The translations under genes were made by a program, and so were the position numbers. DNA of 64,000 bases from a bacterium (GTDB lineage Bacteria; Zhuqueibacterota; Zhuqueibacteria; Residuimicrobiales; Residuimicrobiaceae), in NCBI GenBank assembly GCA_029554865.1, contig JAKPUX010000228.1:25883-89882 (forward strand). The letters run 5' to 3'. Below are positions 40,817 through 58,750 of the stretch, in pieces; within the stretch, counting starts at the first letter, position 1, and the number at the start of each line of letters is the position of its first letter. The notes under the pieces were generated by a model that saw nothing but the letters and a program-made list of their open reading frames with translations, did not search any database and was not told where the DNA came from.

Positions 40817-40820
40817 ACGC

Positions 40821-41588: not shown

Positions 41589-41601
41589 TTTGGTTTCCTT
41601 T

Positions 41602-42069: not shown

Positions 42070-42428
42070 CAGGTCACCGTCACCGCGCAGGGGGTGTAGT
42101 TGAGAATCTCCTGCAAGGTCTTGTTGACCGATTTGAGTGCCTCCTCGACAGCACCGACCTCGCCATGGATCACCAGGGCGCCGGTGAAGCGGTCGAGAAA
42201 CCCGATCTGGACGTTGGCGGCCTTGACGGCGATATCGCCGGCGATCATGGCGGTCTCGCCCGGGGTGAGGGTCATAATGCCGATGGCATTGACGTAGGGG
42301 ATGCCGATTTTTTTGCACACCTCCTCACCCGGATGGGCGATCATATGGGCCAGGGTCACCTGCTTGCCTGGCACATACTCCTGGATGATGCGCTCTTTGT
42401 CCTGATAGGGGTTTCTCGAATCTTCCAT
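42069..42428 (-). CDS. eutS: circularly permuted BMC shell protein EutS/PduU
   Basis: 119 aa; ...[26 protein letters not shown]...[33 protein letters not shown]... matching EutS. Confidence 0.9.
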
Positions 42429-42429
42429 T

Positions 42430-43772: not shown

Positions 43773-43780
43773 AAAAAGCC

Positions 43781-44446
43781 TCAGCCCAGCATGAAGTAGA
43801 TGGGATTGCGCGCGATATCGAGTACGGTCTCCTGGAAGGCATCGCAGGCGGCTTTGCAGGCGGCCTGGGTGCCGGTGAGCAGACCTCCGGAAAAGTTGGT
43901 CTCGGAGGGCGGCGCAAAATAGAGGCAGAGGCGCACGTTGGCGGCCTTCATCGCCTGGTCGAGGGCGTAGGTGGCCTCGAGCGGCGGTGCGATCAGATAG
44001 GAGAGGGGCTCACCGGGAGTGATGCCGGCCACACCCGAGAGATAACTGCCGGTGCGGGCGATGAGGTGCGGGAAGAAGGTCAGGCTGTTGGCCTCGTTGG
44101 CTGAATACCAAATCGCTTCGTTTTCGAGATAGTCGAGGGCGGCCTGGATGCCGGCCTGGACCTCGCCGGGATTGGGGCCGGCCAGCATGGCGATGATCTC
44201 GCCGGAGAGGGGCCCGGAGGCGTGCGCAGCGCCGGCGTAGAAGGATTTGGCATAGACCACTTCGACTTCGGCCTTTTTGGTCGCCTCATCGATGCTGACG
44301 TAGAGGGCATCATCGATATCGGCGGTGATAAGGCCAAGGCTGCGCTGTTCGGGCTTGAGTTTGAGCTCGGCATGGAGTCCTGCATCCACCGAGGAGATCA
44401 GGCGGACGGCGAGGGGCCGGGCTTTGATGGGATCGAGGATTGCCAT
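43781..44446 (-). CDS. eutL: BMC-T shell protein EutL
   Basis: 221 aa; close match to recalled EutL throughout (…RSLGLITADIDDALYVSIDEATK…GPNPGEVQAG…SRTGSYLS…PPSETNFSGGLLTGTQAACKAAC…ARNP). Confidence 0.9.
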   Translation of the reverse strand: MAILDPIKARPLAVRLISSVDAGLHAELKLKPEQRSLGLITADIDDALYVSIDEATKKAEVEVVYAKSFYAGAAHASGPLSGEIIAMLAGPNPGEVQAGIQAALDYLENEAIWYSANEANSLTFFPHLIARTGSYLSGVAGITPGEPLSYLIAPPLEATYALDQAMKAANVRLCLYFAPPSETNFSGGLLTGTQAACKAACDAFQETVLDIARNPIYFMLG

Positions 44447-44476
44447 AATTTCTGTCCTGTCGCTAGAGTATACACA

Positions 44477-45367
44477 TTATTTCAGGTTGATGCCACTGGT
44501 TTTTTGGGCGATCATTTTCTTGACGGTATCGACGATCACGGCCGAAGCCTCGACCGGGGGGGTACCGAGCTTGTGAATGTTCGAGATCACGGTCCGGTCC
44601 GACTCGACGGTGGTGGCGACCGCGGGGCGGTAGACCATGTAGGCGCTCATGCTCTCAGACTGGCCGAGGCCGGGGCGCTCGCCGATGAGGAGGACCACCA
44701 CGTCGGCCTGAAGGTGCTCGCCGATCTCATCCTCCACCTTGACACGGCCGTATTTCACAAAGAAGGGGGTCCCCACCTTCAGGCCGGCCGACTCAAAGCC
44801 CTTGACCAGGGGGGGAAGGATTTCATCATAGTTGGCGGTCATGGCGTCCGTGGAAAGGCCGTCGGAGAGAACGATCTGCACCTGGGGTTGGTGGATGCAT
44901 TTTTCGCTGATGAGCCTGCGCCCCTCCTCCGAGAGCATGCGGCCGAGATCGGGCCGGGTCAGGTATTCGTCTTTGTCGGAGACCTGGGTCTGCACGATGA
45001 ACAGGCCGGTGCGTGTGGTCCACTCCTCGGGGATCTCCTTGAAGACGGTGTCGCGCGACAGGGAGTGATCGGCGAGGAAGCGCAGATAAGGCAGGGTACG
45101 GCTGCGGGTGCCGGTGCGGCCGACGGCGACGCGGGCATTGGTGGCGGCGCGCAGATCGCCCAGGGCCTTGGCGTTGTTGGGCTGCCCGATCCCGATCCAA
45201 CGCTTGACCTCCTCCCCGGCCAGGTCGGGCAAGGGGCCCTCGCCGGCTGTGGAGGGGGCGGGCGCAGGCGCTGCGCCTGCACTCTGGAGAGGACGGGGGG
45301 CGGCCGCCGGCGAGTTCATCTCCTGCAGCACCGCGTTGACAATGGCTTCAATCTGTTTTTGATCCAT
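44477..45367 (-). CDS. eutC: ethanolamine ammonia-lyase small subunit EutC with N-terminal encapsulation peptide
   Basis: 296 aa; N-terminal [17 protein letters not shown] helix, Pro/Ala linker, conserved EutC core. Confidence 0.9.
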
Positions 45368-45385
45368 GATTATCGGTCTCCAGAT

Positions 45386-46747
45386 CTAGAAAAATATCGA
45401 CGCATCGCCGGCCTTTTCGGTCAGCATACCATTTTTCATGATGCCCATCTTTTCGAGCCAGGCTTCAAATTCCGGGGCGGGACGCAGTCCCAGGGTGGCG
45501 CGGATGGTGGCAGTGTCGTGATAGGCGTTGGTCTGATAGTTGAGCATGATGTCATCGCCGAGGGGAACGCCCATGACGTAATTGATACCTGCTGCGGCGA
45601 GGAGGACGGTCAGGTTCTCGAGTGCGTTCTGGTCGGTGTTGGCATGGTTGGTGTAGCAGGCATCGGCCCCCATCGGAATGCCGTGGAGTTTGCCCATGAA
45701 ATGATCCTCGAGTCCGGCGCGGGTGATCTGGCGGCCGTCATAGAGGTACTCGGGCCCGATGAAGCCGACCACGGTGTTGACCAGGAAGGGGCGATAGCGC
45801 CGGGCCAGGCCGTAATTGCGCGCCTCGAGGGTGACCTGATCGGCGCCGTTATGGGCCCCGGCGGAGAGGGCCGAACCCTGGCCGGTTTCGAAGTAAAGCA
45901 TGCTCGAGCCGGCGATGCGGCAGTATTTCTTGCCCACCTCATAGGCCTCGTCGAGGAGTTCGACGGTGATGCCGAATTCCTTGAGCCCCTTCTCGGAGCC
46001 CGAGATGCTCTGGAAGATGAGGCCGGCCGGCGCGCCGTCGCGGATGGCGGCCATCTGGGTGGAGACGTGGGCGAGGACGCAGCTCTGGGCCGGGATCTGC
46101 CACTTGTCGATGATCTCCTGGATGCAGATAAGCAGCTTTTTGACATTTTCGGGCGAATCGATACAAGGGTTGATGCCGATCACCGCGTCGCCGACCCCAT
46201 AGGAGAGCCCCTCGTATATCTGCGCGGTGATGCTTTTGAGATCATCGCGCGGGTCATTGGGCTGAAGGCGGGCGCTGAAATGGCCCGGCAGACCGACGGT
46301 GGTATTGGCCTTGCTGACCACCGGGATGCGTTTGGCCGCATAGATGAGGTCGAGATTGGACATCAGTTTGGTGCAGGCCGCCACTATTTCGGAGGTCAAC
46401 CCCCGGCGCAGACGCTGGATGTCCTCCGGGGTGGTCCGGTCGCAGAGGACGTACTCGCGCAGTTCTCCCACTGTCCAGTTGCGGATCTCGGCAAAAACAT
46501 TCTCATTGACGGCGTCCTGGATCACGCGCGTGACTGCATCCTCCTCATAGGGGATGACCGGATGGTTACGCAGATCGGCCAGACTGAGGTTGGCGAGCAC
46601 ATATTTGGCGGCGACACGCTCCTGCGAGGTCTCGGCGGCGATGCCGGCGAGGACGTCGCCCGAGCGCAGCTCGTTCGCCTTGGCGAGGACATCCTTGATA
46701 TCCTTGAATTGATAGGTTTTCCCGAACAGCAGGGCGCTGAGCTTCAT
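45386..46747 (-). CDS. eutB: ethanolamine ammonia-lyase large subunit EutB
   Basis: 453 aa; MKLSALLFGKTYQFKDIKDVLAKANE... and full-length EutB similarity. Confidence 0.95.
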   Translation of the reverse strand: MKLSALLFGKTYQFKDIKDVLAKANELRSGDVLAGIAAETSQERVAAKYVLANLSLADLRNHPVIPYEEDAVTRVIQDAVNENVFAEIRNWTVGELREYVLCDRTTPEDIQRLRRGLTSEIVAACTKLMSNLDLIYAAKRIPVVSKANTTVGLPGHFSARLQPNDPRDDLKSITAQIYEGLSYGVGDAVIGINPCIDSPENVKKLLICIQEIIDKWQIPAQSCVLAHVSTQMAAIRDGAPAGLIFQSISGSEKGLKEFGITVELLDEAYEVGKKYCRIAGSSMLYFETGQGSALSAGAHNGADQVTLEARNYGLARRYRPFLVNTVVGFIGPEYLYDGRQITRAGLEDHFMGKLHGIPMGADACYTNHANTDQNALENLTVLLAAAGINYVMGVPLGDDIMLNYQTNAYHDTATIRATLGLRPAPEFEAWLEKMGIMKNGMLTEKAGDASIFF

Positions 46748-46761
46748 CTGCTTCTCCTCAA

Positions 46762-48198
46762 TTAGGATGGAAAGGCCAAAGATTTGACGGTCAGGGGCAC
46801 AATATCACCGCCGAAATAGCTTTTGCCGATATCTATGTAATCCCCCTCGCGGGTGTTCACCTCATCGATGACCGCGAGGGCTTTGGGTTTGATCAGGGGC
46901 TCGAGTTCCATGCCGAGCACCTTGCCGACATCATTGGCTGAGATTATGATCGCCGGATGGGCCGGATCGGGGTATTCCCGATAGAGCCGGGCCAGGGCGG
47001 AGGCGCACTGGACCACCGCGCGATAGGTCACCGGCATGGCGGCCGAGAGGGCGATGGCGAAGAGGTCGGCGCCGGGATCGAGGTCGTGACGCCGGGCGGC
47101 CTGCAGTATCTCGCCATATATCTCCGGCTCGGGCTGCTGCCAGTCGATCGCCGGATGCAGCACCGGGATGTTGCGCAAGGGCAGTTTCTCATAAGCGACC
47201 CAGATGGTGCTGCCGCTCAGCGAGAGCGAATAGGCACCGGCGCCGATGACGGTGGCGCGGATCGTCTGCCTGGGAAGCCGGACCGGATAGGCCTGCAGGC
47301 GGGGGTGAGTACGCAATGCATCAGCCAGAATGGGCCCAAGATCCCTGAAGTAAAAGGGATCACCTTGGGTCAATTGCGGATGATAAAAGCATTCACCCAC
47401 ACCGCCGGAGATGAAGAGGGCGTCCAGTTTGCCGGGCTCCTTCAGAGGCGGGGTCATGAGCAGTTCCTCGAGCAGGGGCGAGGAGAGGCCTTCGATAAGG
47501 TCGACGACGAGGTCGGCCATGCGCTGGGCTGTGCGCTCGAGATCAGCGCGGGTCAGGGCGTTGTTCTGGGGGATGGAGCCCGGGAAGAGGCTGCGCAGCA
47601 CCCTGGAGGCCGGTTCCCGTACCCGGGTGACCCGGCCGGCCGGATCGGTCTCGATGAGATGGCCGCCGACGTTGAGACAGGCGGTATCGATGACGCGGCC
47701 GTTATCAAAGAGCACATAGTTGGAGGTTCCGCCGCCGATGTCGATGTTGAGGACGCGGGCGGAACGGCTGTCGGAAAAATCGGCGGCTCCCGATCCCCGG
47801 CCGGCGATGACCGACTCCAGGTGGGGGCCCGCTGTAGCGACAACGAAATCGCCGAGGCGGTCGGCGAGGGTCATGATGGAACGGCGGGCGTTGCTCGCCT
47901 TGGAACTCTCGCCGGTGATGATGATCGCGCCGGTCTCGATCTCGTTGAGGGTTCTGCCGGCACGGGCATATTCACTTTGGAGCAGGGCGAAGAGCTGCTC
48001 TTCATCGATGGAACCATCCTCGTGCACGGGGGTCATGTGAATGGCGCTCTCGTAGAGGATGCGGCGCTCGCTGAATTCGTAACGCGGCACCTGGGTGGCG
48101 GGTGCGCGGTTGATCAGTTCGAGCGCGGAAAAGATCAGCTGCAGGGTGGTGGTGCCGATATCGATGCCGACACTGTCTATTTTCTTGGTTTCACTCAA
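46762..48198 (-). CDS. eutA: ethanolamine ammonia-lyase reactivase EutA
   Basis: 478 aa; tandem ASKHA ATPase repeats (GIDIGTTT...; NIDIGGGTSN). Confidence 0.9.
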   Translation of the reverse strand: MSETKKIDSVGIDIGTTTLQLIFSALELINRAPATQVPRYEFSERRILYESAIHMTPVHEDGSIDEEQLFALLQSEYARAGRTLNEIETGAIIITGESSKASNARRSIMTLADRLGDFVVATAGPHLESVIAGRGSGAADFSDSRSARVLNIDIGGGTSNYVLFDNGRVIDTACLNVGGHLIETDPAGRVTRVREPASRVLRSLFPGSIPQNNALTRADLERTAQRMADLVVDLIEGLSSPLLEELLMTPPLKEPGKLDALFISGGVGECFYHPQLTQGDPFYFRDLGPILADALRTHPRLQAYPVRLPRQTIRATVIGAGAYSLSLSGSTIWVAYEKLPLRNIPVLHPAIDWQQPEPEIYGEILQAARRHDLDPGADLFAIALSAAMPVTYRAVVQCASALARLYREYPDPAHPAIIISANDVGKVLGMELEPLIKPKALAVIDEVNTREGDYIDIGKSYFGGDIVPLTVKSLAFPS

Positions 48199-48255
48199 AT
48201 CGCCGCGCTCGTAAAGAGGGCCGGAGGGGACAAGCCCCTCCGGCTGTTGAAAGAA

Positions 48256-49491
48256 TTACTTCAGGAGTTTCGCTTCCGATTTGCCGACTGAAATGGTTTC
48301 GGACTGGGGCAAAAGCAGACCGGTGTTCTCGTTGCGGCCCTGGAGGATGAAGCGCGGAGTCTTCTCCGTCATCTGTTCCACGGCGAGCTTGCTGGCCTTG
48401 CCGATCGGGCCGCCCTTGAGGCGGTTGAAGATCAGGGCCAGTTTCATGCCCTTGAACTCGGTGATCATCTCATAGTCGCCGTCGCTGTCGGAGGCGGAGA
48501 AGATCGGATCGCCGCGATGGCCGAGCACCTTTTTGATGGCTTCCACTTTGCCCATGCGCTGGGTCTGCACCCAGCCGGTCTTGTACTGCGGCAGCAGTAT
48601 GTTATTTTTCACTTCCAGTTCCATGGCAATGACCTTGTTGGGGTCGATGTTGTAGCCGAAATTGCCAGGGGCGCCGAAGGTCTGGACCACCTGCTTGAGG
48701 CTGGCGGAGCAGATGTAAACGTCGATGCCGGCTTTCATCATCGATTCGGTCAGATCCTGCATCTCGGGATGGACGCGCAGGCCGCTCTTGTAGGTATAGT
48801 CAATCGGACCGGCCTTGCAGGCGAAGTTGCAGGGGGCTTTCCAGGTCACCTTGGTCAGTTTGTCGTTAAGAGCGAAGGTGATCGCATCTTTGGCCAGGGC
48901 CTGAACCTCTTCGACGGAGTGATTGGCCAGGAAGAAGAGCACCCAGGGATAGCCGTAGACAGCCTCGATGCCGGCGGTCTCGCAATAGCCGTCATAGAGG
49001 AAGGGCATCTTGGTGATGAAATCCTTGAACTGCGGGGTCTCGCGGATCTCTTCAATGGTCATCTTGCCGACGCCGAAGCCCGCATAGTTGTCATGCAGGA
49101 ATTCATAGGCGGAGATGATGTCGGCGTTGATGTCGGCCAGCTTGATGTTTTTGTAATCGGCATTGAGCTGCTTGACACCATTGACCTCGTCCTTGAAGAG
49201 GGCCTTGAACTCTTCCTTGCTCAGCTTGAACTTGAGATTCCAGAGCTGATGACGGAAGGTCGCCTCTTCGCAGTCAAGATGGGCCATGGTCTGGTCCCAG
49301 TCGAGAGCGACGTAGGGGGGATTCTTCTTGTCGTAGTACTTGCCGCCCACACCATAGTCCTTGATGAACTTGGAAAGGACTTCGTAGTTGCGCGGGGACC
49401 AGTTCATTTTGTTGAGGGCATAAACGGAGCTGGTGCCCAGGAAAAGAACAGCGATGAGAAGCAGGGCTATCGGGAGAAAAAATCTCTTCAT
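48256..49491 (-). CDS. secreted HAD-superfamily phosphatase (signal peptide, DxDxT motif)
   Basis: 411 aa; N-terminal signal peptide MKRFFLPIALLLIAVLFLGTSSVYA; HAD motif I DWDQTM, motif IV-like SASDSDGD; lower GC than flanking genes. Confidence 0.55.
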   Translation of the reverse strand: MKRFFLPIALLLIAVLFLGTSSVYALNKMNWSPRNYEVLSKFIKDYGVGGKYYDKKNPPYVALDWDQTMAHLDCEEATFRHQLWNLKFKLSKEEFKALFKDEVNGVKQLNADYKNIKLADINADIISAYEFLHDNYAGFGVGKMTIEEIRETPQFKDFITKMPFLYDGYCETAGIEAVYGYPWVLFFLANHSVEEVQALAKDAITFALNDKLTKVTWKAPCNFACKAGPIDYTYKSGLRVHPEMQDLTESMMKAGIDVYICSASLKQVVQTFGAPGNFGYNIDPNKVIAMELEVKNNILLPQYKTGWVQTQRMGKVEAIKKVLGHRGDPIFSASDSDGDYEMITEFKGMKLALIFNRLKGGPIGKASKLAVEQMTEKTPRFILQGRNENTGLLLPQSETISVGKSEAKLLK

Positions 49492-49527
49492 GATTGTGAC
49501 CTCCGGTTGATTAGGGATTTGGGTTGC

Positions 49528-50595
49528 CTAGAACTCCACCCAGAACTGGGTGACAAAGCGCAGGTTGCCTTTGGATTCATCGCCAACCTTGAAGCCGTCG
49601 CGGACGACGTTGAACATCAGATAGTTCTCGCCGATGATCTTGTAGTTGAGGCCGGCGAGGATCATGTTCCACTCATCATTGTCCACATCGCCATTGGGAT
49701 CGAGCTGGCCATACTCGCCGACGAACATCAGGTTCGGGAGGATGTTATAGTTGACATAGCCCATGTAGGTCAGGCCACTGACGCCATCGAGTTCGGGGAC
49801 CGCCTCGACGTTCTTCTTGCCGGTAGTGACTTCAACACCGACATCGAGCTTCTTGTCGATGGCGTACTCAGCGCCGCCGCCGATCCAGAAGTTGTTGTCC
49901 TTGTTGCTGGCCTTGTTGTAGTAATCGGTCATGGTCCAACCGAAAACGGAGAGGCCGGCTACCGGTTTCAACCAGATGTCAGCGATGACGTTTTTGGCTT
50001 TGTTGTCTTCTTTGGCATAGCTGTAGGTGTTCTTGTTGGCCACGGCGAGGCGGGCATAGCCCTTGACGCCCAGGCTGGCCGGGAGGTTGTAGGTCGCCAT
50101 GGCGCCGGTGACGGCAGAGCTGTAGCCATTGTCAAAAGCGGTGCCGCTGACGTAAGCGAAGCGGTCGATCCACGAATTTTCGATGGTGTTGTGGTAGCTC
50201 TGAGCTCCCGGCTGCTCATAGTTGCCAAAGAGCATCTCGAGGCCCGGCAAACCCAGGAAATTCTTGAACTGAATGTAGGCGTACTTGATGCGGGCGTTGG
50301 TGCCCTGATTCAGCAGTTTGCCGTTCTGGGGGTCGGTGTAGTTGCGGTGGTTGAAATCCAGGGTGTAGCGCATCGCGATGTTGTCCGAGTATTTGTATCT
50401 CATCGTGACATAGCCGCGATCGAAGTAGAAGTAGTTGGAGGTTGCTTTGGTGTAGGGTTCCTCGACCATGTAGCGGTAGCGCAGAACGGTCTGGAAGGTG
50501 AGTTTGTCGTTGAGCTTTTCAGCCTGGGCCACGCTCGAGGCGAAGATCAGAACTACCAGCGTCAACAGGATGGTAACGGTGAGTTTTTTGTACAT
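49528..50595 (-). CDS. outer-membrane beta-barrel porin
   Basis: 355 aa; signal peptide, alternating amphipathic beta-strand pattern rich in Tyr/Gly/Asn, C-terminal ...FWVEF with terminal Phe; lower GC. Confidence 0.6.
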   Translation of the reverse strand: MYKKLTVTILLTLVVLIFASSVAQAEKLNDKLTFQTVLRYRYMVEEPYTKATSNYFYFDRGYVTMRYKYSDNIAMRYTLDFNHRNYTDPQNGKLLNQGTNARIKYAYIQFKNFLGLPGLEMLFGNYEQPGAQSYHNTIENSWIDRFAYVSGTAFDNGYSSAVTGAMATYNLPASLGVKGYARLAVANKNTYSYAKEDNKAKNVIADIWLKPVAGLSVFGWTMTDYYNKASNKDNNFWIGGGAEYAIDKKLDVGVEVTTGKKNVEAVPELDGVSGLTYMGYVNYNILPNLMFVGEYGQLDPNGDVDNDEWNMILAGLNYKIIGENYLMFNVVRDGFKVGDESKGNLRFVTQFWVEF

Positions 50596-50669
50596 ACTAC
50601 TCCTCCTTAGATTGGGGTTTGGGTGGATTGATCAAGCCGTGGAGCCACCGGCCGCGATCTTTCGTTTGC

Positions 50670-51929
50670 TCATTCTCCCTTGGGTGGGGCGGCTTCCAGG
50701 GCCGCCTGGCTGCCCTTGGGGGCAAGGAGCATGGCGAAGAGCACTGCGGTGATGCCTCCGATGAGTTTGCCGACAATTACTGCAAAGATCATGTCCGGCT
50801 TGTTTGCTGCGGTGAAACCAAGATGGTCGCCGAAGGTGAAGGCGGCGCTGACGGCGAAGGCGACATTGAGGACCTTACCGCGGTCATCCATGCCGCTCAT
50901 CAGCTTGAACATCGGGATGTTGTTGGCCAGGGTGGCGATCATGCCGGCGGCGGCGGTGCTGTTCATCTTGAGCAGGCGGCCGACGCTGAGCAGGGGTTTT
51001 TCGAACCAGCGCGTGAGGAGATAGACCATGGGATAAGCGCCGAGGAGGACGATGGCGATACGGCCGATGACCTCGATGGCGCGCAGGTCGATGCCGGGCT
51101 GATCACCGCTGACCGGGAAGATCGGATCCATGCCGGGGATGATCTTGAGGCCGGTGAGGGTCTCGAGGACGATCGAGGCGAGGCCGAGTGTGATCAGGGC
51201 CACCAGCAGCTTGGCGAAGACCAGGAAGCCCTTGATCATGGCGTTGGGTCGGCGCCAGAGTCCGAGGGCGATGAGCAGGGAGACGATGACCACCGGGATG
51301 AGGTTCTTGAAGATCAGCCCCAGGGTGAAAATCACCGCGGTGCCGTCCGCTGCCTTGATGTTGGAGATCATGGCCACCAGACCGCCGGCGATACAGCCGA
51401 GGGGGATGGTGACGATGCCGGCGAGGACGCCGAGGGCGAGGTGTTTGCGGTCGGCCTTGTCGATGATGCCGATGCCGACGGGTATCGAAAAAACGATGGT
51501 CGGGCCCATCATGGCGCCCAGGATGAGGCCGGCGTACATCCAGGCGGGATAGTCGATCTGGCCCGCTGTGGTGGCCAGCTCTTTGGCGAGGAAAAAGCCG
51601 CCCATGTCATTGGCCAGCAGGGTGGTGGCGAACATGGCGGGGCTGGCGCCGAGGAACTGGTAGAGAGGGATGATGACCGGGCCGAGCAGGCGGGCCAGCA
51701 CCGGGGCCAGGCTGATCACACCCACCATGGCCAGGGCAAGGGGCCCCATGGCGTTAAAGCCCTCCTCGAATTGGGCCCCTGCGCCGTCAAAGGCGCGGCC
51801 CAGCCGGCCGAGGCGCACCCTTTTGAAAACGCTTTCCGATCCCCCGAACTGCATCAGGATGCGATCCAGGGCGCCCAGCACCATGAATGCCATCATGATG
51901 TCGATGATGATTTGATTGACCAGTGCCAT
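50670..51929 (-). CDS. eutH: ethanolamine permease EutH
   Basis: 419 aa polytopic membrane protein matching the EutH family. Confidence 0.8.
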   Translation of the reverse strand: MALVNQIIIDIMMAFMVLGALDRILMQFGGSESVFKRVRLGRLGRAFDGAGAQFEEGFNAMGPLALAMVGVISLAPVLARLLGPVIIPLYQFLGASPAMFATTLLANDMGGFFLAKELATTAGQIDYPAWMYAGLILGAMMGPTIVFSIPVGIGIIDKADRKHLALGVLAGIVTIPLGCIAGGLVAMISNIKAADGTAVIFTLGLIFKNLIPVVIVSLLIALGLWRRPNAMIKGFLVFAKLLVALITLGLASIVLETLTGLKIIPGMDPIFPVSGDQPGIDLRAIEVIGRIAIVLLGAYPMVYLLTRWFEKPLLSVGRLLKMNSTAAAGMIATLANNIPMFKLMSGMDDRGKVLNVAFAVSAAFTFGDHLGFTAANKPDMIFAVIVGKLIGGITAVLFAMLLAPKGSQAALEAAPPKGE

Positions 51930-51967
51930 CTTTTCTGCTTCCTTCCGGGTTTAGCTGTTCTCTGCTG

Positions 51968-53188
51968 TCAGAGTGCCTGTTGGTAAATCCTGATGATATC
52001 CTCTTTCTGCGCCGTGCGCGGGTTGGTGCGCAGGCAGCTGTCCTGCAGCGCCTGGTCGGCGAGCTGGGGCAGATCTTTGTCCGTGACCCCGAATCCGGCC
52101 AGACCCGAGGGCATGCCGAGATCCTCGATGAGGTGGATGACGGCGGTGACAGCACGCTCGGCGGCCTCCCGCCGGTTCAGGTTTTCGACCCTCTCTCCGA
52201 GGGCGGTGGCGATATCGCCGAACTCTTCGGCCCGCACCAGCAGGTTGAAGCGCATCACATGCGGCAGGATCAGGGCGTTGGCCGTGCCGTGCGGGATCTT
52301 GAAGCGGCCGCCCGCCTGATGAGACATGGCGTGGCAGAGGCCCAGGCCGGCGTTGGAAAAGGCCATGCCGGCCATGTAGCAGGCGACGGCCATCTTGTGG
52401 CGCGCCAGGGTGTTGGTGCCGTAGCCGACGGCGATGGGCAGATAGGTCGCAACCAGGCGGATGGCGCGGAAGGAGAGCGCGCGCGCCAGGGTGCAGGAAC
52501 TCTGGGCGACATAGGCTTCGATGGCGTGGGTCAGCACGTCGAGGCCGGTGGCGGCAGTCACCGCCGGCGGCAGGCCGATAGTCAGCAGGGGGTCGATGAT
52601 CGCCACGGCGGGGATCAGGGCTGGATGTTCAAAGACGACCTTGCGGCCGGAGGCGGGATCGCCGATGACGGCGAGGTCGGTGACCTCTGAAGCGGTGCCC
52701 GCTGTGGTCGGCATGGCGGCCAGAGGAAGAGGCTTTTGCGCCAGCTCGCTGTCGGGATCGATCTCGGCGAAGGGAAGGGGGTTGCGGGCGAGCAGGGCGA
52801 TCATCTTGGCGGCATCGATAGGAGAGCCGCCGCCAACCGCCAGAACCGCATCGCATCCTGCGCTCTTGACCATCGCCGTGCCCGCGTTCACCATCGCCCA
52901 GGTCGGTTCACCCGAGATCTGGGCGAAAATCTCCGCACTCAGCCCCTTGCGCTGCAGGGAACGCAGGACGACATCGAGGAGGCCGAGCTGAAGGATGGTC
53001 TGATCGGTGACGATCAGCACCCGGCTGGCCCCGATCCGTTTCATCTCCGCGCCGGTCCTGGCCGCGACCCCGTCACCCACAAGGGCCAACGGCGGCACGC
53101 GGAAGGTGAAATGGTTGGCGACGGAGATCTCGTCCACGGTCTGGGCGACGATCTCTTCGATGAAGCGCTGTTCGCTGCCTCTCTCCAA
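51968..53188 (-). CDS. eutG: iron-containing alcohol dehydrogenase EutG-like with N-terminal encapsulation-type extension
   Basis: 406 aa; Fe-ADH motifs (GGGSPIDAAK, metal-binding His cluster CHAMSHQ); about 25-aa N-terminal amphipathic extension RFIEEIVAQTVDEI before the ADH core. Confidence 0.85.
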   Translation of the reverse strand: MERGSEQRFIEEIVAQTVDEISVANHFTFRVPPLALVGDGVAARTGAEMKRIGASRVLIVTDQTILQLGLLDVVLRSLQRKGLSAEIFAQISGEPTWAMVNAGTAMVKSAGCDAVLAVGGGSPIDAAKMIALLARNPLPFAEIDPDSELAQKPLPLAAMPTTAGTASEVTDLAVIGDPASGRKVVFEHPALIPAVAIIDPLLTIGLPPAVTAATGLDVLTHAIEAYVAQSSCTLARALSFRAIRLVATYLPIAVGYGTNTLARHKMAVACYMAGMAFSNAGLGLCHAMSHQAGGRFKIPHGTANALILPHVMRFNLLVRAEEFGDIATALGERVENLNRREAAERAVTAVIHLIEDLGMPSGLAGFGVTDKDLPQLADQALQDSCLRTNPRTAQKEDIIRIYQQAL

Positions 53189-53190
53189 GG

Positions 53191-53856
53191 CTACTGTTTC
53201 CTGAGATTCTCAATGAACAATCGGATCGCTTCGCGCGCGGCGAGCTTGACCGGATCCCGCCCGACAGCCTCGTCAAAGGCCCCGCTGCGGGCGACGACGC
53301 CCTCGAAACGGCCGTGGGCCAGCGTGACGGCCCCGCTGCGGTCAAAGATGGCATAATCGAGCTTCGCCGCCATACCGCGCACAGGGGCATCGCTGCTCCG
53401 CATCGACACATCGTCGCTGGCCTCCTGGGTGATGGTCAGTGCCGCAGGGGCCACGATGAAATCGAACCCCTGGGGCGCCGAGGTCAGTCTGGCGGGATCG
53501 AGGGCGGCCGCGCGCCAGTAATCCTTTTCCTGCACCACGGAGAGCACCGGCGCCGCATCCGCTGCTGCGGCCTCCGCCCAATAGATGGTCTTCCAGGGGC
53601 CGGCTGTAAAGGCCTGATAGAGATCCTGCTGGATGAGAGCGCGGACCTGGTCGAGATCATCGGATTTGTCGAAGAGGGAGATGACGGAGGAGGAGCTTTC
53701 AATATCGATAAGAGTCAGGGGAAGCAGAAGGATGTTCTTGCCATGAAGGTCACGCTTGCTGAAAGAGGGATCGTCCACCTGCAGGGGTTTTACAAAGGAG
53801 TGGCAGCCGGCGATGATCAGCAGTAGCAGACAAAAGGGAGGCAATATTTTTTTCAA
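53191..53856 (-). CDS. lipoprotein of unknown function
   Basis: Start proposed at TTG with AGGAG 8 nt upstream (the ORF track ATG lies at 53895); lipobox LLIIAGC. Confidence 0.45.
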   Translation of the reverse strand: MKKILPPFCLLLLIIAGCHSFVKPLQVDDPSFSKRDLHGKNILLLPLTLIDIESSSSVISLFDKSDDLDQVRALIQQDLYQAFTAGPWKTIYWAEAAAADAAPVLSVVQEKDYWRAAALDPARLTSAPQGFDFIVAPAALTITQEASDDVSMRSSDAPVRGMAAKLDYAIFDRSGAVTLAHGRFEGVVARSGAFDEAVGRDPVKLAAREAIRLFIENLRKQ

Positions 53857-53878: not shown

Positions 53879-54292
53879 TCAGACCAGGTGCACATGACTG
53901 GAATGGTTCTTCTTTTTCAGGCCGCGGGTCACCGCCTGAATGAGCTGCTGGTCGTCGAAGGGTTTGTCGAGATACCCCGCGCAGCCGCGTTCGCGCAGCC
54001 CGGTGCGCAGCTCAGTATCGCCATAAGCCGAGATGGCGATCAACGCATAGTAGGATCTAAAGTGCTGCAGCTCCTCGAGCAGGGCCAGTCCACCGGAAAC
54101 CGGCATCTGCAGGTCGATGATGACAAGCTGGACGGGACAGCCCTGGCTCTCCGCGAGTTGGATCTTCTTCAGGGCCTCACCGAGATTCCGGGCCGAGCTG
54201 ACCAGAAAACGCGCGCTTTGCAGGATAAAATCGATGCTGTCTCGCGTGTATTCATCGTCATCAACGATGAGTATGTGCGGCGAATTATCCAT
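53879..54292 (-). CDS. stand-alone response-regulator receiver (CheY-like) protein
   Basis: Start at MDNSPHILIVDDDEYT (the ORF track begins at 54313); receiver acidic pocket and VIIDLQMP phospho-Asp region; no output domain. Confidence 0.75.
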   Translation of the reverse strand: MDNSPHILIVDDDEYTRDSIDFILQSARFLVSSARNLGEALKKIQLAESQGCPVQLVIIDLQMPVSGGLALLEELQHFRSYYALIAISAYGDTELRTGLRERGCAGYLDKPFDDQQLIQAVTRGLKKKNHSSHVHLV

Positions 54293-54317: not shown

Positions 54318-54338
54318 CTTGCAATAAGCAGGCCAAAG
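54318..54338 (-). promoter_or_regulatory. candidate sigma-54 (-24/-12) promoter for the eut/BMC operon
   Basis: Minus-strand sequence cTTTGGCCTGCTTATTGCAag: GG-N10-GC spacing with TGGC at -24 and TTGCA at -12, about 35 nt upstream of the receiver ATG and downstream of a sigma-54 activator gene. Confidence 0.4.
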
Positions 54339-54415
54339 CGGCGCGGACATCTTTATTGATAATAAAAACAGTCAGATAGCGCAATCAATGACAGGCGGGA
54401 GGCGGGAAAAGGGGT

Positions 54416-54455
54416 GCCACAAAAATGCCTTGCCGAGGTGCATGCCGGGCAAGGC
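54416..54455 (-). terminator. putative rho-independent terminator after the sigma-54 activator gene
   Basis: Minus-strand hairpin GCCTTGCCG...CGGCAAGGC (9-bp stem) followed by ATTTTTGT. Confidence 0.45.
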
Positions 54456-54512
54456 TAATAAATACAGTCGATTGGATGAGGTGCATTGCCTGGGGTGGAA
54501 AAAATGTGGCAC

Positions 54513-55946
54513 CTATTTCTCGAGGCTATCCGGTTTCCGGTGCAGGCGGTTGTTGAGGGCGCGGCGAGTGATGCCAAGCATCATGGCGGCGATTTTCTGG
54601 TTGCCCCGGCTGCGGGCGAGGGCCTCCTGGATGAGCAGATCCCCGGCTTCTTTCATGGTCGGGAGCGAGTCGCCGAAGGCCATCCGTTTGGCGGTGGCGA
54701 TGGCGGCCGCGGGATCCGTCTCACCGTTTTTAGGCAGACCATTGTTGCCCACCTTCTCGCGGATGGCCTCAAGGGAGAGGATCCCCTTTTGATGGCGGCT
54801 GATGGTATCGAGGATCATCCCTTCCAGTTCGCGGATGTTGCCGGGGAAGAGGTAGTTGCTGAGCAGGATGAAGAGTTCGGGCGGCACAGCCGGCACCTTT
54901 TTCTGCAGGGTGGCGCAGGCCTTGCGGATAAAATGGTCGGTGAGCAGGTGGATATCGTCGCGGCGCTCGCGCAGGGGAGGAATATGGATGCGATGGGTTT
55001 GCAGGCGATAAAAGAGATCGCGGCGGAAAGCTCCGCTCTGCACCATCTCTTCGATGTCGCGGTTGGTGGCGACAATGAAGCGGGCATTGGAGAGGCGGGG
55101 GATATCCGAGCCGATCGGGTAATAGCGGCCTTCCTGGAGGATGCGCAGCAGTTTGACCTGGGATTCCTGGCTCAGTTCGCCGATTTCGTCGAGAAAGAGG
55201 GTGCCGTCGCCGGCCTGTTCGATGAGACCCTTGCGGTCGCTCTCCGCGCTGGTGAAGCTGCCCCGCTTGTGACCGAAGAGGGTGTCAGAGAAGAGGGTGT
55301 CATCGATGCCGGCGACATTGACAGCGATGAACTGCCCGCTGCGTCCGCTCGCCTTGTGGACCGACTGGGCGATGAGTTCCTTGCCGACCCCGGTCTCGCC
55401 GGTGATGAGCACCGGCAGGGGGGTGGTGGCGACCGCCTCGGCGTACTGGAATATGGAGCGCATGGAGGCGTTCTGGGTGACGGTGGAGGCGAAGGCCTCC
55501 GCATTCTTGAGGGTGTTGGAGAGGAGATACTCCTTGAGGCGTGAGTTTTCATCCTGCATCTGGCGCAGTTCGGCGGCGCGCCGGACGGTCGTCACCAGCC
55601 GGCTCTCGTCGACGGGCTTGACGAGGTAGTCAAAAGCCCCGCATTTCATGCATTCGACGGCGGAATTGACCTCATTGATGGCGGTGAGGATGATCACCGG
55701 TAGATGGGGGTACTCCTTGACGATCTCGGGGAGGAGCTTGGAGCCGGAGAGTCCGGGCATCGCCAGGTCGAGGAGGGCCATCTCGCAGGGGGTCTCCTGG
55801 AGCATTCCGAGCACGGCGCGGCTGTCGCCGCATTCGATGACGTTGTTGATGCCGTTGGAGCTGAGGGTCATCATCAGGCTGAGCCTGAACTGTTCTTCGT
55901 CATCCACAACCAGGACCGGCAGGGCGGGATAGGTGATTTTTTTCAT
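54513..55946 (-). CDS. sigma-54-dependent Fis-family response regulator (NtrC-like enhancer-binding protein)
   Basis: 477 aa; receiver domain, AAA+ sigma-54 interaction domain (GETGVGKE, GAFRRDLFYRL, ESELFGH-like FGHKRGSFT) and C-terminal Fis HTH. Confidence 0.9.
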   Translation of the reverse strand: MKKITYPALPVLVVDDEEQFRLSLMMTLSSNGINNVIECGDSRAVLGMLQETPCEMALLDLAMPGLSGSKLLPEIVKEYPHLPVIILTAINEVNSAVECMKCGAFDYLVKPVDESRLVTTVRRAAELRQMQDENSRLKEYLLSNTLKNAEAFASTVTQNASMRSIFQYAEAVATTPLPVLITGETGVGKELIAQSVHKASGRSGQFIAVNVAGIDDTLFSDTLFGHKRGSFTSAESDRKGLIEQAGDGTLFLDEIGELSQESQVKLLRILQEGRYYPIGSDIPRLSNARFIVATNRDIEEMVQSGAFRRDLFYRLQTHRIHIPPLRERRDDIHLLTDHFIRKACATLQKKVPAVPPELFILLSNYLFPGNIRELEGMILDTISRHQKGILSLEAIREKVGNNGLPKNGETDPAAAIATAKRMAFGDSLPTMKEAGDLLIQEALARSRGNQKIAAMMLGITRRALNNRLHRKPDSLEK

Positions 55947-57199
55947 CTCTCTTCGCTCGGTTTTGCATTTGGGCCGTTTTTCTTCTGTTTGCTGCCCATA
56001 AGCGAGGGTGCACTGGACTGTCCTCCCGGCGACTGGGCGATGTAAAGAATGGTGCTCTTGACCGAGGTGACGAAACGGTCAAAGGCGCGCGTCAGCTCCC
56101 CGATCTCGTCCGGCCGGGTGGAATTGAAAAGGGTGTTGATGTGGGCGTTCTTCATGCGCTCGGCCACCTCCTTGATCGGGGTGGTGATCTTGGTGGCGAC
56201 CAGAAAGACCAGGCCGGTCATGAGCAGCAGGGCGGCCAGCCCGATCAGGAGCATCGCCCGGGTGAGCGAGCGGACCCCCGCCAAGGCCTCCTGGCGCGGC
56301 ACGACAGCGATGAAGCTCCAGTTGCCGGTCTTCATCGGTGAAAAGAAGATCAGGATGGGGTGGTGGGTTTCAGGATCTTCGGTTTCGATGAAGCCGTCCT
56401 CCCCGCGCTGGATCTGCTCCGCCAGCTTGATGAACCCTTCGCCGCCGGCCTCGCGCCCGTATTCACTGAGGCTCTTGTGACCGACCAGACTGCGGTCCTT
56501 GTGGGCGATGATGGTGCCCTTGTTGCTGACCATGAAGGCGAAGCCGCTCTCGAAGAGCTTGATCCTGGTGATCATGTCCGAAAGGTATTCGAGCGAGACG
56601 TCGCCGGTGGCGACGCCGGTGAATTTGCCCTCCCGGAGGATGGGGGCGGAGAAGGTGGCCATGAGCACGCCGCGGTAGAGATAGGGTTCGGTAAGCAGGG
56701 AGGTGCCGGTGGCCTTGGGAATCTGGTACCAGTCATCAGTCTGATAGTTGACGAGGGGTTCGACGGCGATCTTGCCGGTGATGCGGTTCCAGTAGGGGAG
56801 GAAGCGGCCGTCGGCATCGCTGCCCGGGGTGCCGCGGTACTGACTGTCGCGGCCGTCGAAGGCGTTGGGTTCGAAGCCCAGGCTCAGGCCGACAAAGTTC
56901 TCATGACGGATGATGAACTGGCGCAGCATGGCGTTCACCTCCGCCCGGTCCCGGGAACGATAGTTTTCCATCACGGTCGCCACGGTTTCGACAAATTCGA
57001 GGCCGGCGCGCATCTGCACCTGCACCTCGGAGGCGTAGTGGCGTGTGGTCTCCTGGGTTTGCCTGATGATCGCTTCATTCTGCTGGGTGGTGCTCATGTT
57101 GATGATCGTCAGGGCGAAGAACATCAGGATGAAGAGCAGTCCCGGAATCAGATAGAAGAGGATCTCTGTGCGGATGGAGTTGCGCCATGTTGAAAACAT
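55943..57199 (-). CDS. membrane sensor protein with periplasmic Cache-like domain and cytoplasmic HAMP domain (no transmitter)
   Basis: 418 aa; two TM helices bracketing a roughly 280-aa periplasmic domain with dCache-like pattern, HAMP (IKEVAERMK...IGELTRAFDRFV) and no kinase or MCP domain; overlaps the regulator start (ATGA). Confidence 0.7.
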   Translation of the reverse strand: MFSTWRNSIRTEILFYLIPGLLFILMFFALTIINMSTTQQNEAIIRQTQETTRHYASEVQVQMRAGLEFVETVATVMENYRSRDRAEVNAMLRQFIIRHENFVGLSLGFEPNAFDGRDSQYRGTPGSDADGRFLPYWNRITGKIAVEPLVNYQTDDWYQIPKATGTSLLTEPYLYRGVLMATFSAPILREGKFTGVATGDVSLEYLSDMITRIKLFESGFAFMVSNKGTIIAHKDRSLVGHKSLSEYGREAGGEGFIKLAEQIQRGEDGFIETEDPETHHPILIFFSPMKTGNWSFIAVVPRQEALAGVRSLTRAMLLIGLAALLLMTGLVFLVATKITTPIKEVAERMKNAHINTLFNSTRPDEIGELTRAFDRFVTSVKSTILYIAQSPGGQSSAPSLMGSKQKKNGPNAKPSEER

Positions 57200-57231
57200 C
57201 TCAACCTCTTTGGTAGATTTGATCCCGACCC

Positions 57232-58683
57232 CTATGCACTCTCTTTTACTCCTTCTGCGGGCCGGGTGGTGACAGGCAGGCGGACCTCGACACTGGTGCC
57301 GCAGCCGGGAGTGGATGATATCTTGAGTTCGCCGCCGAAATTCTTGATCAGGTTGTAGGAGATGGATAGCCCCAGTCCGGTGCCGCCGTGTTCGCGCTTG
57401 GTCGTGTAAAAGGGATCCATGATATGCTGGAGGTTGTCCCCGGTGATGCCCTCGCCCTCGTCGGTGACCGAGAGAATAATGCTCTCGCTGCGGCTCTCCC
57501 AGCGGGTAACGACCCGGATCCCCTCCTGATTGCTGCGCAGGGCCTGGCAGGCGTTGGTGATCAGGTTGACGAGGACCTGTTCGAGATGGACGGCATTGCC
57601 GTGAAGTTTGGGCAGATCCGCGGCGCAGTCGAGTTCGAAGCGCTCGGTGCTGCGCTGGATGAGTCCGCGCAGGATCTCCACCGAGGTCTCCACCGCCAGG
57701 TTGACATCCACCTCACCGAAGACATGATCGCTGGTCTGGCGGGCAAAATCCTTGAGATGCTGGACGATGCGTTCGATGCGGATGGCTCCTTCGGTGATCC
57801 CCTTGTAGAGATTGCCGAGGCGGTCGCGGGCGGAGGAGTAGGGCATGCCGGCGATGGCAAAGTCGCCGTTGGCCTCGTAATACTCCTCCACGATCGGCTG
57901 GATGTCATTCCAAGCCTTGCTGAGGACGCGGGCGTTGAGGAGGACGTAGTTGTTGGGATTGTTGATCTCGTGGGCCATGCCCGAGACCAGCACGCCGAGC
58001 GAAGCCATCTTGTCCGCCTGGATGAGCTTCTGCTCCTGCAGATGGGCGAATTCCTCCATGCGTTTCAGCTCGGTGAGATCGCGGATGTTGGCGAGCAGCA
58101 GATCCTTTTCGCCGAGCTGGATGCGGCGGAGAAAGACCTCGACATCAAAAACGGAGCTGTCCGAGGGGCGCCTCGCCTGGTAGTGGAAGAGCTGCTCTTC
58201 ACCGCGCAGCACCTTGTCCCAGATTTCGGTCAGAGGCTCCGTGGTCTCGGCAATAGGGACGAAGAAATCCTGAACCCACCCCCCGATCATGTGCTGGCTG
58301 TCGGCCTGAAAGAGGTCGAGGGTGCTTTGATTGATGTCGATGATGGTGCCGGCGGCATTATGAATGATCACCGCATCATAGACGCCGTCGAAGATCATGC
58401 GCCGGGCGCGATCCGAGGAGGCGACCAGGCTCTCGGCCTCCTCCCGCCAGCTCAGAGCCATCTCGGTCTGGCGGCGCAGCTGGCGCTCCTTGGCGATGAC
58501 CGAGAGGCTGGCGAACACAGCGCAGAGGGTGATGAAAATGATGGTGGCGATATGGGACGGCCACATGCCCAGATCCGGCCACCACGTGGTCTTGATGAAT
58601 TCGAAGAGAATCATGACCCCTGCGGTGAGCATGGCGATGATCAGGATCTGGGCGGCCGGATTTTTATCATAATTGGCGGGCAT
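57232..58683 (-). CDS. PAS-domain sensor histidine kinase
   Basis: 483 aa; N-terminal TM helices, PAS-like region, HisKA H-box MAHEINNPNNY, HATPase_c N/G boxes (NLITNA..., GGTGLGLSIS). Confidence 0.85.
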   Translation of the reverse strand: MPANYDKNPAAQILIIAMLTAGVMILFEFIKTTWWPDLGMWPSHIATIIFITLCAVFASLSVIAKERQLRRQTEMALSWREEAESLVASSDRARRMIFDGVYDAVIIHNAAGTIIDINQSTLDLFQADSQHMIGGWVQDFFVPIAETTEPLTEIWDKVLRGEEQLFHYQARRPSDSSVFDVEVFLRRIQLGEKDLLLANIRDLTELKRMEEFAHLQEQKLIQADKMASLGVLVSGMAHEINNPNNYVLLNARVLSKAWNDIQPIVEEYYEANGDFAIAGMPYSSARDRLGNLYKGITEGAIRIERIVQHLKDFARQTSDHVFGEVDVNLAVETSVEILRGLIQRSTERFELDCAADLPKLHGNAVHLEQVLVNLITNACQALRSNQEGIRVVTRWESRSESIILSVTDEGEGITGDNLQHIMDPFYTTKREHGGTGLGLSISYNLIKNFGGELKISSTPGCGTSVEVRLPVTTRPAEGVKESA

Positions 58684-58716: not shown

Positions 58717-58750
58717 AATAAAAAAAGCCCTGTCAAAGCGACAGGGCTTG
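58717..58750 (-). terminator. rho-independent terminator of ssrA
   Basis: Minus-strand AAGCCCTGTCgctttGACAGGGCTT followed by TTTTTTTATT, immediately 3' of the tmRNA CCA end. Confidence 0.75.

Follow-up and report, generated by a model that had tools for sequence, protein, structure and literature searches.

A candidate split amine sensor and a conserved sigma-54 enhancer/promoter cassette upstream of an ethanolamine utilization operon

We analyzed a 64,000-nucleotide stretch from an uncultured digester bacterium, on contig JAKPUX010000228.1 (positions 25,883 to 89,882 of the forward strand; assembly GCA_029554865.1, Residuimicrobiaceae) – hereafter the window – in which an ethanolamine utilization (eut) microcompartment operon is preceded by genes for a histidine kinase, a membrane protein with a periplasmic Cache domain and a HAMP domain but no output domain (Cache-HAMP), and a sigma-54 activator. 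Below we describe these genes and the regulatory elements that follow them, and then consider how the Cache-HAMP protein might act.

Three signaling genes precede a eut microcompartment operon

Open reading frame (ORF) calling and Pfam searches placed the kinase, Cache-HAMP, activator, promoter, receiver and eut operon all on the minus strand. The features are as follows (coordinates, strand, identity and basis).

57232..58683, minus strand: histidine kinase, 483 aa (Pfam, hydropathy)
55943..57199, minus strand: Cache-HAMP receptor without output domain, 418 aa (Pfam, match to PDB 3LIB, AlphaFold2 model)
54513..55946, minus strand: NtrC-type response regulator and sigma-54 enhancer-binding protein (EBP), 477 aa (Pfam, family alignment)
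54505..54513, minus strand: candidate enhancer box 1, GGTGCCACA (extended AGGTGCCACATTTTTTCC) (cross-lineage conservation)
54421..54455, minus strand: intrinsic-terminator-like hairpin GCCUUGCC...GGCAAGGC followed by U5, between the two boxes (fold energy)
54413..54421, plus strand: candidate enhancer box 2, inverted copy, reading TGTGGCACC on the gene strand (cross-lineage conservation)
54320..54335, minus strand: sigma-54-type -24/-12 promoter TGGCCTGCTTATTGCA (pattern match, conservation)
53879..54292, minus strand: stand-alone receiver, 137 aa, opening the predicted sigma-54 transcript (Pfam)
34396..53856, minus strand: target eut/microcompartment operon, ~20 kb (Pfam, gene calls, reading of translations)

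A previous sequence-only reading of this DNA had proposed three same-strand genes (PAS kinase, Cache-HAMP protein, EBP) upstream of the eut operon, an EBP start overlapping the Cache-HAMP stop, a terminator hairpin ahead of a -24/-12 promoter, and a CheY-like receiver without an output domain as the first operon gene. Each element of this layout is borne out by our analyses: the overlap is 4 nt (ATGA), and the 20-nt promoter sequence that was quoted lies at 54338..54319, with its core at 54335..54320.

The 137-aa receiver consists of a receiver domain alone, with an acidic pocket (DDD), a phospho-acceptor Asp within IIDLQMP and a conserved Lys within DKPF. It is 27% identical to the receiver of the EBP, and orthologous cassettes (L016, L029, L099 and L100) place a receiver gene first as well. 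The operon that follows starts with genes for a lipoprotein, an iron-containing alcohol dehydrogenase (Fe-ADH; EutG-like), EutH, a porin-like outer-membrane protein, a secreted HAD-like hydrolase, EutA, EutB and EutC; continues with EutL-like, BMC-wHTH (a microcompartment shell protein with a winged helix; EutK-like), ParA-like ATPase, EutS-like, EutP-like and EutQ genes; and ends with genes for an adenosyltransferase, a Pta-like protein, microcompartment (BMC) shell proteins, an aldehyde dehydrogenase and an RnfC-like protein. Pfam or gene calls underlie the naming of the lipoprotein, Fe-ADH, EutH, porin-like protein, HAD-like hydrolase, EutA, EutB, EutQ, adenosyltransferase, BMC-wHTH, ParA, aldehyde dehydrogenase and RnfC-like protein; the names EutC, EutL, EutS, EutP and Pta come from reading the translations alone and are not search-based. 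Pfam identified no ANTAR or AraC domain in the locus, the N-terminal domain of the EBP being a receiver. No adenosylcobalamin riboswitch or other known RNA was found at the locus, where a transfer-messenger RNA (tmRNA) was the sole RNA match.

The Cache-HAMP protein is an intact receptor that ends after its HAMP domain

The Cache-HAMP protein comprises, in order, a transmembrane helix (TM1, residues ~15-33), a dCache_1 domain, a second transmembrane helix (TM2, ~316-334), a HAMP domain and a ~30-aa disordered tail rich in Lys and Asn. Both domains pass their Pfam cut-offs (dCache_1 64.5 bits against 45; HAMP 27.6 bits against 25), and the HAMP domain directly follows TM2 and carries the Pro and DEIG signatures. 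The AlphaFold2 model (pLDDT 83.7 overall and >90 over the dCache domain) contains a stalk helix, two PDC modules, a helix at 307-350 in which TM2 continues as AS1, and then a connector leading to AS2 (365-389). Residues 392-418 model at pLDDT <50, are 39% conserved and have no Pfam or NCBIfam match. Because this segment is predicted to be disordered, the protein appears to contain no hidden output domain; because the EBP gene overlaps the Cache-HAMP stop, there is also no output remnant downstream. Pfam, the model and the overlapping gene thus agree with the sequence-only reading that a kinase or methyl-accepting chemotaxis protein (MCP) output is lacking. No NCBIfam equivalog model reached its cut-off for the kinase, the Cache-HAMP protein or the EBP.

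A search of 5.8 billion proteins identified just two other clusters with the Cache-HAMP architecture, at 92% and 75% identity. All other matches, at ≤39% identity, are 600-730-aa kinases, MCPs or phosphatases. Both relatives are 418-419 aa long and share the window's gene context (kinase, Cache-HAMP, activator, receiver, eut) and its 4-nt overlap, and the DNA upstream of the kinase varies between lineages – the 75% lineage has other neighbors there (Pirin, dCMP deaminase). The exact window protein is recorded in 58 blocks of the assembly collection, with the same context on every contig displayed. Architecture and context therefore extend over lineages at 100%, 92% and 75% identity and dozens of independent assemblies. 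Metagenome-assembled genomes of this type originate in digesters and activated sludge.

Comparison with the 75% lineage gave a ratio of nonsynonymous to synonymous substitution rates (dN/dS) of 0.064, with synonymous sites saturated. The best-conserved segment is the HAMP domain (92% identity, dN 0.04), as against 75% identity for the dCache domain and the low value for the tail. This substitution pattern indicates that the Cache-HAMP gene is genuine and under strong purifying selection, strongest in the HAMP domain.

The sequence-only reading had itself named disruption of a longer kinase or MCP gene as a possible origin of the ORF. Its constant length in relatives and the purifying selection exclude a frameshift product or fragment of this kind. 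Kinase and Cache-HAMP are likewise not one gene broken by a frameshift, because the kinase has a separate, bacterial NtrB-type ancestry and is located upstream rather than downstream. Several short homologues were considered as further examples of the architecture and set aside. Two (P0048 and P0088) come from frameshift-ridden contigs in which neighboring genes are split too, and four short matches from a 50% representative library (P0417, P0507, P0430 and P0459) end inside the HAMP domain or run into PAS or MCP sequence, marking them as contig-end fragments.

The periplasmic domain resembles amine-binding dCache domains

The periplasmic domain (residues ~36-312) matched the sensor of a Methanosarcina mazei kinase (PDB 3LIB) with an E value of 1e-75, and a Foldseek search with the Cache-HAMP model returned the same structure at a TM-score of 0.92 and an rmsd of 2.0. 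The next structural matches were the amine-binding domains of MkcA, PacA, PctD, TlpQ, McpX and McpU, with amino-acid sensors ranking lower. A double-PDC (dCache_1) fold between two transmembrane helices is thus confirmed by Pfam, the 3LIB match, the AlphaFold2 model and Foldseek.

The branch to which these domains belong has been defined as dCache_1AM; the 3LIB domain binds methylamines, and two other members, R3 and R7, bind ethanolamine with a Kd of ~2 uM (PMC10104139). Through the 3LIB alignment, the positions of the dCache_1AM (AM) motif – for which we took R103, D133, W155, F188, Y189, M215, S217 and D235 of PctD as reference – map to R85, D115, W137, W157, Y158, M180, T182 and D200 of the Cache-HAMP protein. 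The sequence and structure matches place this periplasmic domain within the amine-binding dCache_1AM branch. This placement lends support to the sensing of ethanolamine or a related amine that had been suggested for this protein. Since eutH and eutABC are target genes, ethanolamine is the most likely candidate ligand.

The adjacent kinase is membrane-anchored and lacks a periplasmic sensor

The kinase comprises two transmembrane helices (residues 12-30 and 45-63), connected on the outer side by a loop of 14 residues, and then a linker of ~30 aa, a single PAS domain, a dimerization and histidine phosphotransfer (DHp) domain with an NtrB-like H-box (MAHEINNP), and a HATPase_c domain. Neither a periplasmic sensor domain nor a HAMP domain was identified by Pfam and hydropathy. 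Pfam matched PAS_9 and HATPase_c (88.8 bits), and HisKA weakly at 19.8 bits, below the cut-off of 26.9. The H-box is shared with homologues that carry PF00512, and DHp and HATPase_c together identify the protein as a histidine kinase. Its homologues are bacterial NtrB/AtoS-type PAS kinases, and its DHp domain is 89% identical to that of the 75% lineage.

Summed, the kinase and Cache-HAMP proteins amount to dCache-HAMP-PAS-DHp-CA (CA, the catalytic ATP-binding domain), the set found within a single chain in the closest full-length relatives (e.g., the Methanosarcinales matches). Judged by its domains, the pair is a chimeric arrangement with the content of canonical dCache-HAMP-PAS-kinase proteins.

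We observed a second instance of this pairing among relatives of the kinase. In related cassettes (L016, L018, L027, L043, L053, L062 and L065) the kinase is mostly soluble and PAS-only, and there is no Cache gene. One lineage, the Calditrichaceae (L029 and L098), by comparison, encodes a 595-aa kinase of the same family with an N-terminal transmembrane hairpin and, directly upstream of it, a 349-360-aa TM-dCache-TM protein that ends inside the first HAMP helix. This protein is 26% identical to the window's Cache-HAMP, and its nearest relatives (49%) are dCache-HAMP-SpoIIE phosphatases. Because the two sequences diverge and the Calditrichaceae gene order differs from that of the window, independent recruitment is the most likely origin of these two output-less Cache proteins. 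In Calditrichaceae, the predicted sigma-54 transcript also begins with a receiver, and the Fe-ADH is 52% identical to the window's. From the conserved linkage, the complementary domain content and this second, independent occurrence, we infer that the Cache-HAMP protein is an accessory sensor of the kinase.

A separate observation concerns a high-GC relative (L018), in which a 599-aa protein (1117-2916, plus strand) is encoded next to a soluble PAS kinase and its gene shares 4 nt with the start of the kinase gene. This protein matches no Pfam family and has a hydrophobic stretch resembling a signal peptide at its N terminus. It may represent another type of accessory protein for this kinase family.

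An inverted box pair and a -24/-12 promoter follow activators of this family

The EBP has a REC-AAA+-Fis-type helix-turn-helix architecture (Pfam Response_reg 91 bits, Sigma54_activat 198 bits, HTH_8 30.9 bits), with the motifs DDEE, LLDLAMP (containing the phospho-acceptor Asp) and a Walker A sequence GETGVGKE. An alignment of the activator family showed that the recognition helix, G(I/L/M)(T/S)RRALNNRL, is invariant.

The promoter, TGGC-N7-TTGCA, is one of two exact TGGC-N7-TTGCW matches in the window and the sole intergenic, correctly oriented one. It has the GG-N10-GC spacing with TGGC and TTGC cores, lies at a suitable distance from the gene and has candidate activator sites upstream. It ends 27 nt before the receiver ATG (54292), which follows an AAGGG Shine-Dalgarno sequence by 6 nt, and the predicted transcription start is near 54309. 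The promoter is conserved in the relatives at 92% and 75% protein identity, and equivalent TGGCA-N7-TTGC promoters are present in all orthologous cassettes. Such conservation indicates that it is a genuine part of a conserved cassette. Upstream, the terminator hairpin has a folding energy of -16.7 kcal/mol (z -2.8) and is followed by U5; hairpin and U tract are found at the same place in the 92% lineage (L011) and, more weakly, in the 75% lineage (L007), despite sequence change.

Enhancer elements of the TGT-N10-ACA kind, which the sequence-only reading had suggested looking for, are not present near the promoter; an inverted pair of GGTGCCACA boxes was found instead. The final base of the EBP stop codon is also the first base of box 1, and box 2, the reverse complement of box 1, lies just past the terminator U tract. 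The window has no further exact copy of GGTGCCACA, and the two boxes flank the terminator. Center to center, the boxes are 92 bp apart; upstream of the promoter TGGC, box 2 lies at a distance of 77 nt and box 1 at 169 nt. In an alignment of the activator-receiver spacer from the three lineages, both boxes and the promoter are invariant, down to 75% protein identity. No other promoter or box matches occur inside the operon. We also considered whether the inverted boxes could form an additional -24/-12 promoter and rejected this, as neither strand has a GC at the -12 position.

We scanned metagenomes for the pattern TGCCACA-N75-105-GTGGCACC-N60-90-TGGC-N7-TTGC and compared the matching stretches with the window proteins by tblastn. 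The pattern lies directly after an orthologous EBP gene in 13 of 81 matching stretches. Four of these loci represent the window, 92% and 75% lineages, and the other nine come from other, compositionally diverse lineages with EBPs at 54-62% identity; a tenth other lineage with the cassette (L016) was known from an earlier look-up. Across the 13 loci, the first gap measures 84-92 nt and the second 60-77 nt, and flanking bases outside the scan pattern are conserved too (TGCCACAttt, GTGGCACCcc). Because the box pair, its spacings and its flanks follow orthologous activators with an invariant recognition helix, the inverted boxes are very probably the upstream activating sequences of this activator family. 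This conserved enhancer/promoter cassette, as defined by comparative sequence evidence, is the most solid of our new results.

We also observed that the cassette is a trait of a widespread orphan kinase/sigma-54-activator family, in which the activator gene is directly followed by the box pair TGCCACA...GTGGCACC and by a -24/-12 promoter (L016, L018, L027, L029, L043, L046, L053, L057, L062 and L065). The first regulated gene in this orphan family is a stand-alone receiver or encodes a ~145-aa secreted protein of no known function (L027, L043 and L053).

A model for signaling to the eut operon and its alternatives

We slightly favor a model in which the three proteins form a three-component module, probably ethanolamine-responsive, that switches on the eut microcompartment operon. 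The dCache_1AM-type domain would bind a small periplasmic amine, and the resulting conformational change would cross the membrane to the C-terminal HAMP domain. The output-less Cache-HAMP protein would then pass the signal in trans to the neighboring kinase, which is anchored by a hairpin and has neither an outside sensor nor a HAMP domain. The two proteins might touch through their transmembrane helices, or the HAMP domain might reach the kinase linker or PAS domain, as in the PAS-HAMP contacts of Aer and CetA/CetB. The near-invariance of the HAMP domain suggests that it is a functional surface, possibly one that touches the kinase linker or PAS domain. Contacts within the membrane are suggested instead by the Calditrichaceae Cache partner, which has almost no cytoplasmic part.

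The kinase would next phosphorylate the receiver of the NtrC-type activator, as expected of its family. Kinases of this kind autophosphorylate and transfer the phosphoryl group to the activator receiver, whereupon the activator oligomerizes on upstream sites and drives ATP-dependent opening of the sigma-54 closed complex. Here the activator would bind the two inverted boxes that bracket its own gene's terminator, and sigma-54 RNA polymerase at TGGC-N7-TTGCA would produce a transcript encoding the receiver and then eutH, eutABC and the shell genes. More speculatively, the stand-alone receiver, once induced, would probably exert feedback on this kinase, for instance by serving as a phosphate sink.

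A broader version of this model is one that we hold more tentatively, at a little less than even likelihood: output-less Cache(-HAMP) membrane proteins could serve as plug-in sensors in the periplasm that act in trans on sensor-less anchored kinases, recruited independently at least twice to one ancient kinase/sigma-54-activator/receiver cassette. The source would have been an archaeal or MCP-like amine receptor in the window's lineage and a SpoIIE-type receptor in Calditrichaceae.

A number of observations weigh against the three-component model. On the input side, the AM motif positions are conserved save for a Ser to Thr replacement (Thr182), and single mismatches in this motif abolished binding in two controls (PMC10104139). 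The ligand could also be another amine or a precursor, the latter in view of the operon's genes for a porin-like protein and for a secreted hydrolase of the HAD-like type. At the proposed interface, the kinase transmembrane hairpin is only 41% identical to that of the 75% lineage, which is unexpected for a contact surface, and no fusion of the kinase lineage to a Cache or HAMP domain (a Rosetta stone protein) was found among the best 120 kinase homologues. Three further kinases of the family with two transmembrane helices (P0188, P0282 and P0294) have no Cache neighbor. Membrane anchoring alone consequently does not imply a partner – the rule that such kinases come with a Cache protein fails for all three – and the existence of soluble family members implies that the PAS kinase can sense by itself. 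On the output side, the sigma-54 contact loop of the EBP (residues 229-234) reads GSFTSA in place of the usual GAFTGA. The loop is GGFTSA in the 92% lineage (L011) and GAFTGA in the 75% lineage (L007) and most relatives, with GAYTGA in three and GGFTGA in one; its central Thr is kept in all family members, and its Phe in all but the three GAYTGA sequences. This distribution points to GSFTSA and GGFTSA being recent drift in a normally invariant motif. Finally, no RpoN was found among the window ORFs scanned against Pfam, the 64-kb window being too small for its absence to be informative.

Two alternatives concern the hierarchy of the system and the partner of the Cache-HAMP protein, and we consider each unlikely. 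According to the first, the cytoplasmic PAS domain of the kinase is the primary sensor – of acetaldehyde, redox state or another intracellular product, following EatR-type logic – and the Cache-HAMP protein merely tunes or gates it, for example as a ligand-released inhibitor, like LiaF or YycHI on their kinases. In most relatives of the kinase/EBP cassette the kinase is soluble and PAS-only and no additional sensor is present, kinases with two transmembrane helices also occur without a Cache partner, and Pseudomonas aeruginosa EatR senses acetaldehyde rather than ethanolamine (PMC5821096). However, the strongly conserved periplasmic amine-type pocket and HAMP domain argue that an external ligand matters. 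This alternative keeps the Cache-HAMP protein acting via the kinase, and differs from the three-component model mainly in sign and hierarchy.

According to the second, no signal passes from the Cache-HAMP protein to the adjacent kinase: the protein would have an unlinked partner, target the activator or stand-alone receiver directly, or play a non-signaling role, its gene position serving co-expression alone. In favor of this, the kinase transmembrane region is poorly conserved. The Cache-HAMP gene is translationally coupled to that of the EBP rather than the kinase, and Af1503 sets a precedent for HAMP-terminal membrane proteins of unknown partner. Against this stand the position of the gene between kinase and activator, which is conserved across 25% protein divergence with differing upstream flanks; the complementary domain content of the two proteins; and the second, unrelated output-less dCache protein beside a kinase of the same family in Calditrichaceae.

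That the Cache-HAMP ORF is a decaying, functionless remnant of a truncated chemoreceptor or kinase is effectively refuted: every relative at ≤39% identity is indeed a full-length kinase, MCP or phosphatase, but the low dN/dS and near-identical HAMP domain, the intact ORF in many independent assemblies of three lineages, the EBP gene overlapping its stop with no remnant beyond, and the reduction of other short homologues to assembly fragments (which therefore do not speak for decay) all oppose it.

Comparison with characterized systems

Each single ingredient of the window system is already known. We found no described case of their combination, an output-less amine-type dCache-HAMP protein with a sensor-less kinase and a sigma-54 activator before a eut microcompartment operon. 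The closest match in operon logic is the QseE/QseG/QseF system of Enterobacteriaceae, in which the gene order is likewise kinase, accessory protein and NtrC-type sigma-54 activator, QseG is needed for QseE kinase signaling, and QseF acts on a sigma-54 promoter with upstream activating sequences (PMC6075780, PMC12691602). There is no sequence relationship between the two sets of proteins. QseG, a lipoprotein of the outer membrane, makes contact with QseE at the periplasmic domain of that kinase, whereas the window's accessory protein is an inner-membrane dCache-HAMP protein and its kinase has no periplasmic domain.

Precedents also exist for the individual parts of the receptor. One is the prototype HAMP protein, Archaeoglobus fulgidus Af1503, a membrane protein whose chain terminates at HAMP without a cytoplasmic output; it also has no periplasmic input domain, and no partner or target genes are named for it (PMC3585426), whereas the window protein has an amine-type dCache domain and a defined target operon. 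The dCache_1AM receptors mmHK1S-Z3 (3LIB), PctD, PacA, McpX, R3 and R7 (PMC10104139) share the fold of the window domain and most of the residues at its pocket positions. The family members considered here have an output in the same chain (kinase, MCP, SpoIIE or GGDEF/EAL) or are soluble stand-alone domains with a transcription factor. The window chain, in contrast, stops after HAMP and has Thr rather than Ser at one motif position.

Among regulators of ethanolamine catabolic genes, the window system compares with EutR, EutV/EutW and EatR (PMC5821096). EatR also pairs a sigma-54 promoter with an EBP, but is a one-component acetaldehyde sensor, and EutW is a cytoplasmic kinase. The window system fits none of these three types: it has neither an AraC or ANTAR regulator nor an adenosylcobalamin riboswitch, its EBP starts with a receiver, and its sensing is predicted to be periplasmic, via a two-component relay. 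CqsR of Vibrio cholerae has a periplasmic dCache domain that senses ethanolamine and controls a histidine kinase (PMC7046293, PMC12410723); unlike in the window, sensor and kinase are one protein and the output is quorum sensing rather than eut genes.

A division of sensor and transmitter over separate proteins is known from CetA/CetB and Aer, which signal via PAS-HAMP contact (PMC2628428). CetAB carries HAMP on the transducer and PAS on the sensor, the reverse of the direction proposed for the window. UhpB/UhpC provides a further partner-dependent kinase, with sensor and transmitter separate. BceS, which works with BceAB, resembles the window kinase in having a transmembrane hairpin and no outside domain, and relies on a membrane partner (bioRxiv 10.1101/2020.02.28.969956). 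BceS and UhpB both partner with transporters rather than with receptor-like proteins of the Cache type.

Implications of a possible split sensor

The split sensor is the most interesting, though unproven, of our results. If the link between Cache-HAMP and kinase is real, the pair would be a natural split receptor, with a dCache-HAMP half and a PAS-kinase half on separate polypeptides, and would offer an example of sensory inputs being added onto an existing signaling cassette. Sideways signaling through a HAMP or transmembrane bundle would become directly testable, and a role would be suggested for output-less HAMP-terminal proteins. A periplasmic amine sensor with a two-component relay and sigma-54 would also join the three characterized eut regulators (EutR, EutVW and EatR). 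Should output-less Cache proteins more generally act as plug-in sensors, receptors of the Af1503 kind would gain a physiological role and a genetically tractable context, and eut operons a fourth, extracytoplasmic mode of ethanolamine sensing. Independently of the split sensor, the TGCCACA / GTGGCACC box pair and promoter allow regulon prediction in many uncultured bacteria.

Other features of the locus

The second gene of the predicted sigma-54 transcript (53191-53895, minus strand) encodes a 221-234-aa lipoprotein with the lipobox IAGC and no family match, which is kept in the 92% and 75% lineages. By analogy with QseG, it may have a regulatory accessory role. In the Calditrichaceae locus, a lipoprotein with a HAD-type DFDNT motif is encoded right after the receiver gene.

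Between eutH and eutA (48256-50595, minus strand) are genes for a 355-aa porin-like outer-membrane protein, which weakly matches a Desulfovibrio-type trimeric porin, and a secreted 411-aa HAD-IB-like hydrolase with a DWDQT motif. Together these may serve uptake and periplasmic dephosphorylation of a phospho-ethanolamine-type precursor. Further into the operon (42430-43772, minus strand), a 193-aa EutK-like BMC shell protein, in which a Gly/Lys-rich linker leads to a C-terminal winged helix, is followed, with a 4-nt overlap, by a 254-aa ParA/MinD-type ATPase. The two look like a McdA/McdB-style pair for nucleoid-based positioning of the Eut compartment.

A tmRNA gene (58751-59114, minus strand; tag peptide ADDYSYALAA) lies directly upstream of the kinase gene, and its strong terminator occupies 58749..58725. 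A genomic island at ssrA was considered and rejected, as an att-like repeat of the tmRNA 3' end is absent from the window. Elsewhere in the window, a gene (23987-24949, plus strand) whose product carries a C-terminal sorting domain for type IX secretion, a feature suggestive of a host in the Fibrobacteres-Chlorobi-Bacteroidetes group, follows a 1554-aa ORF without a Pfam match (19313-23977, plus strand).

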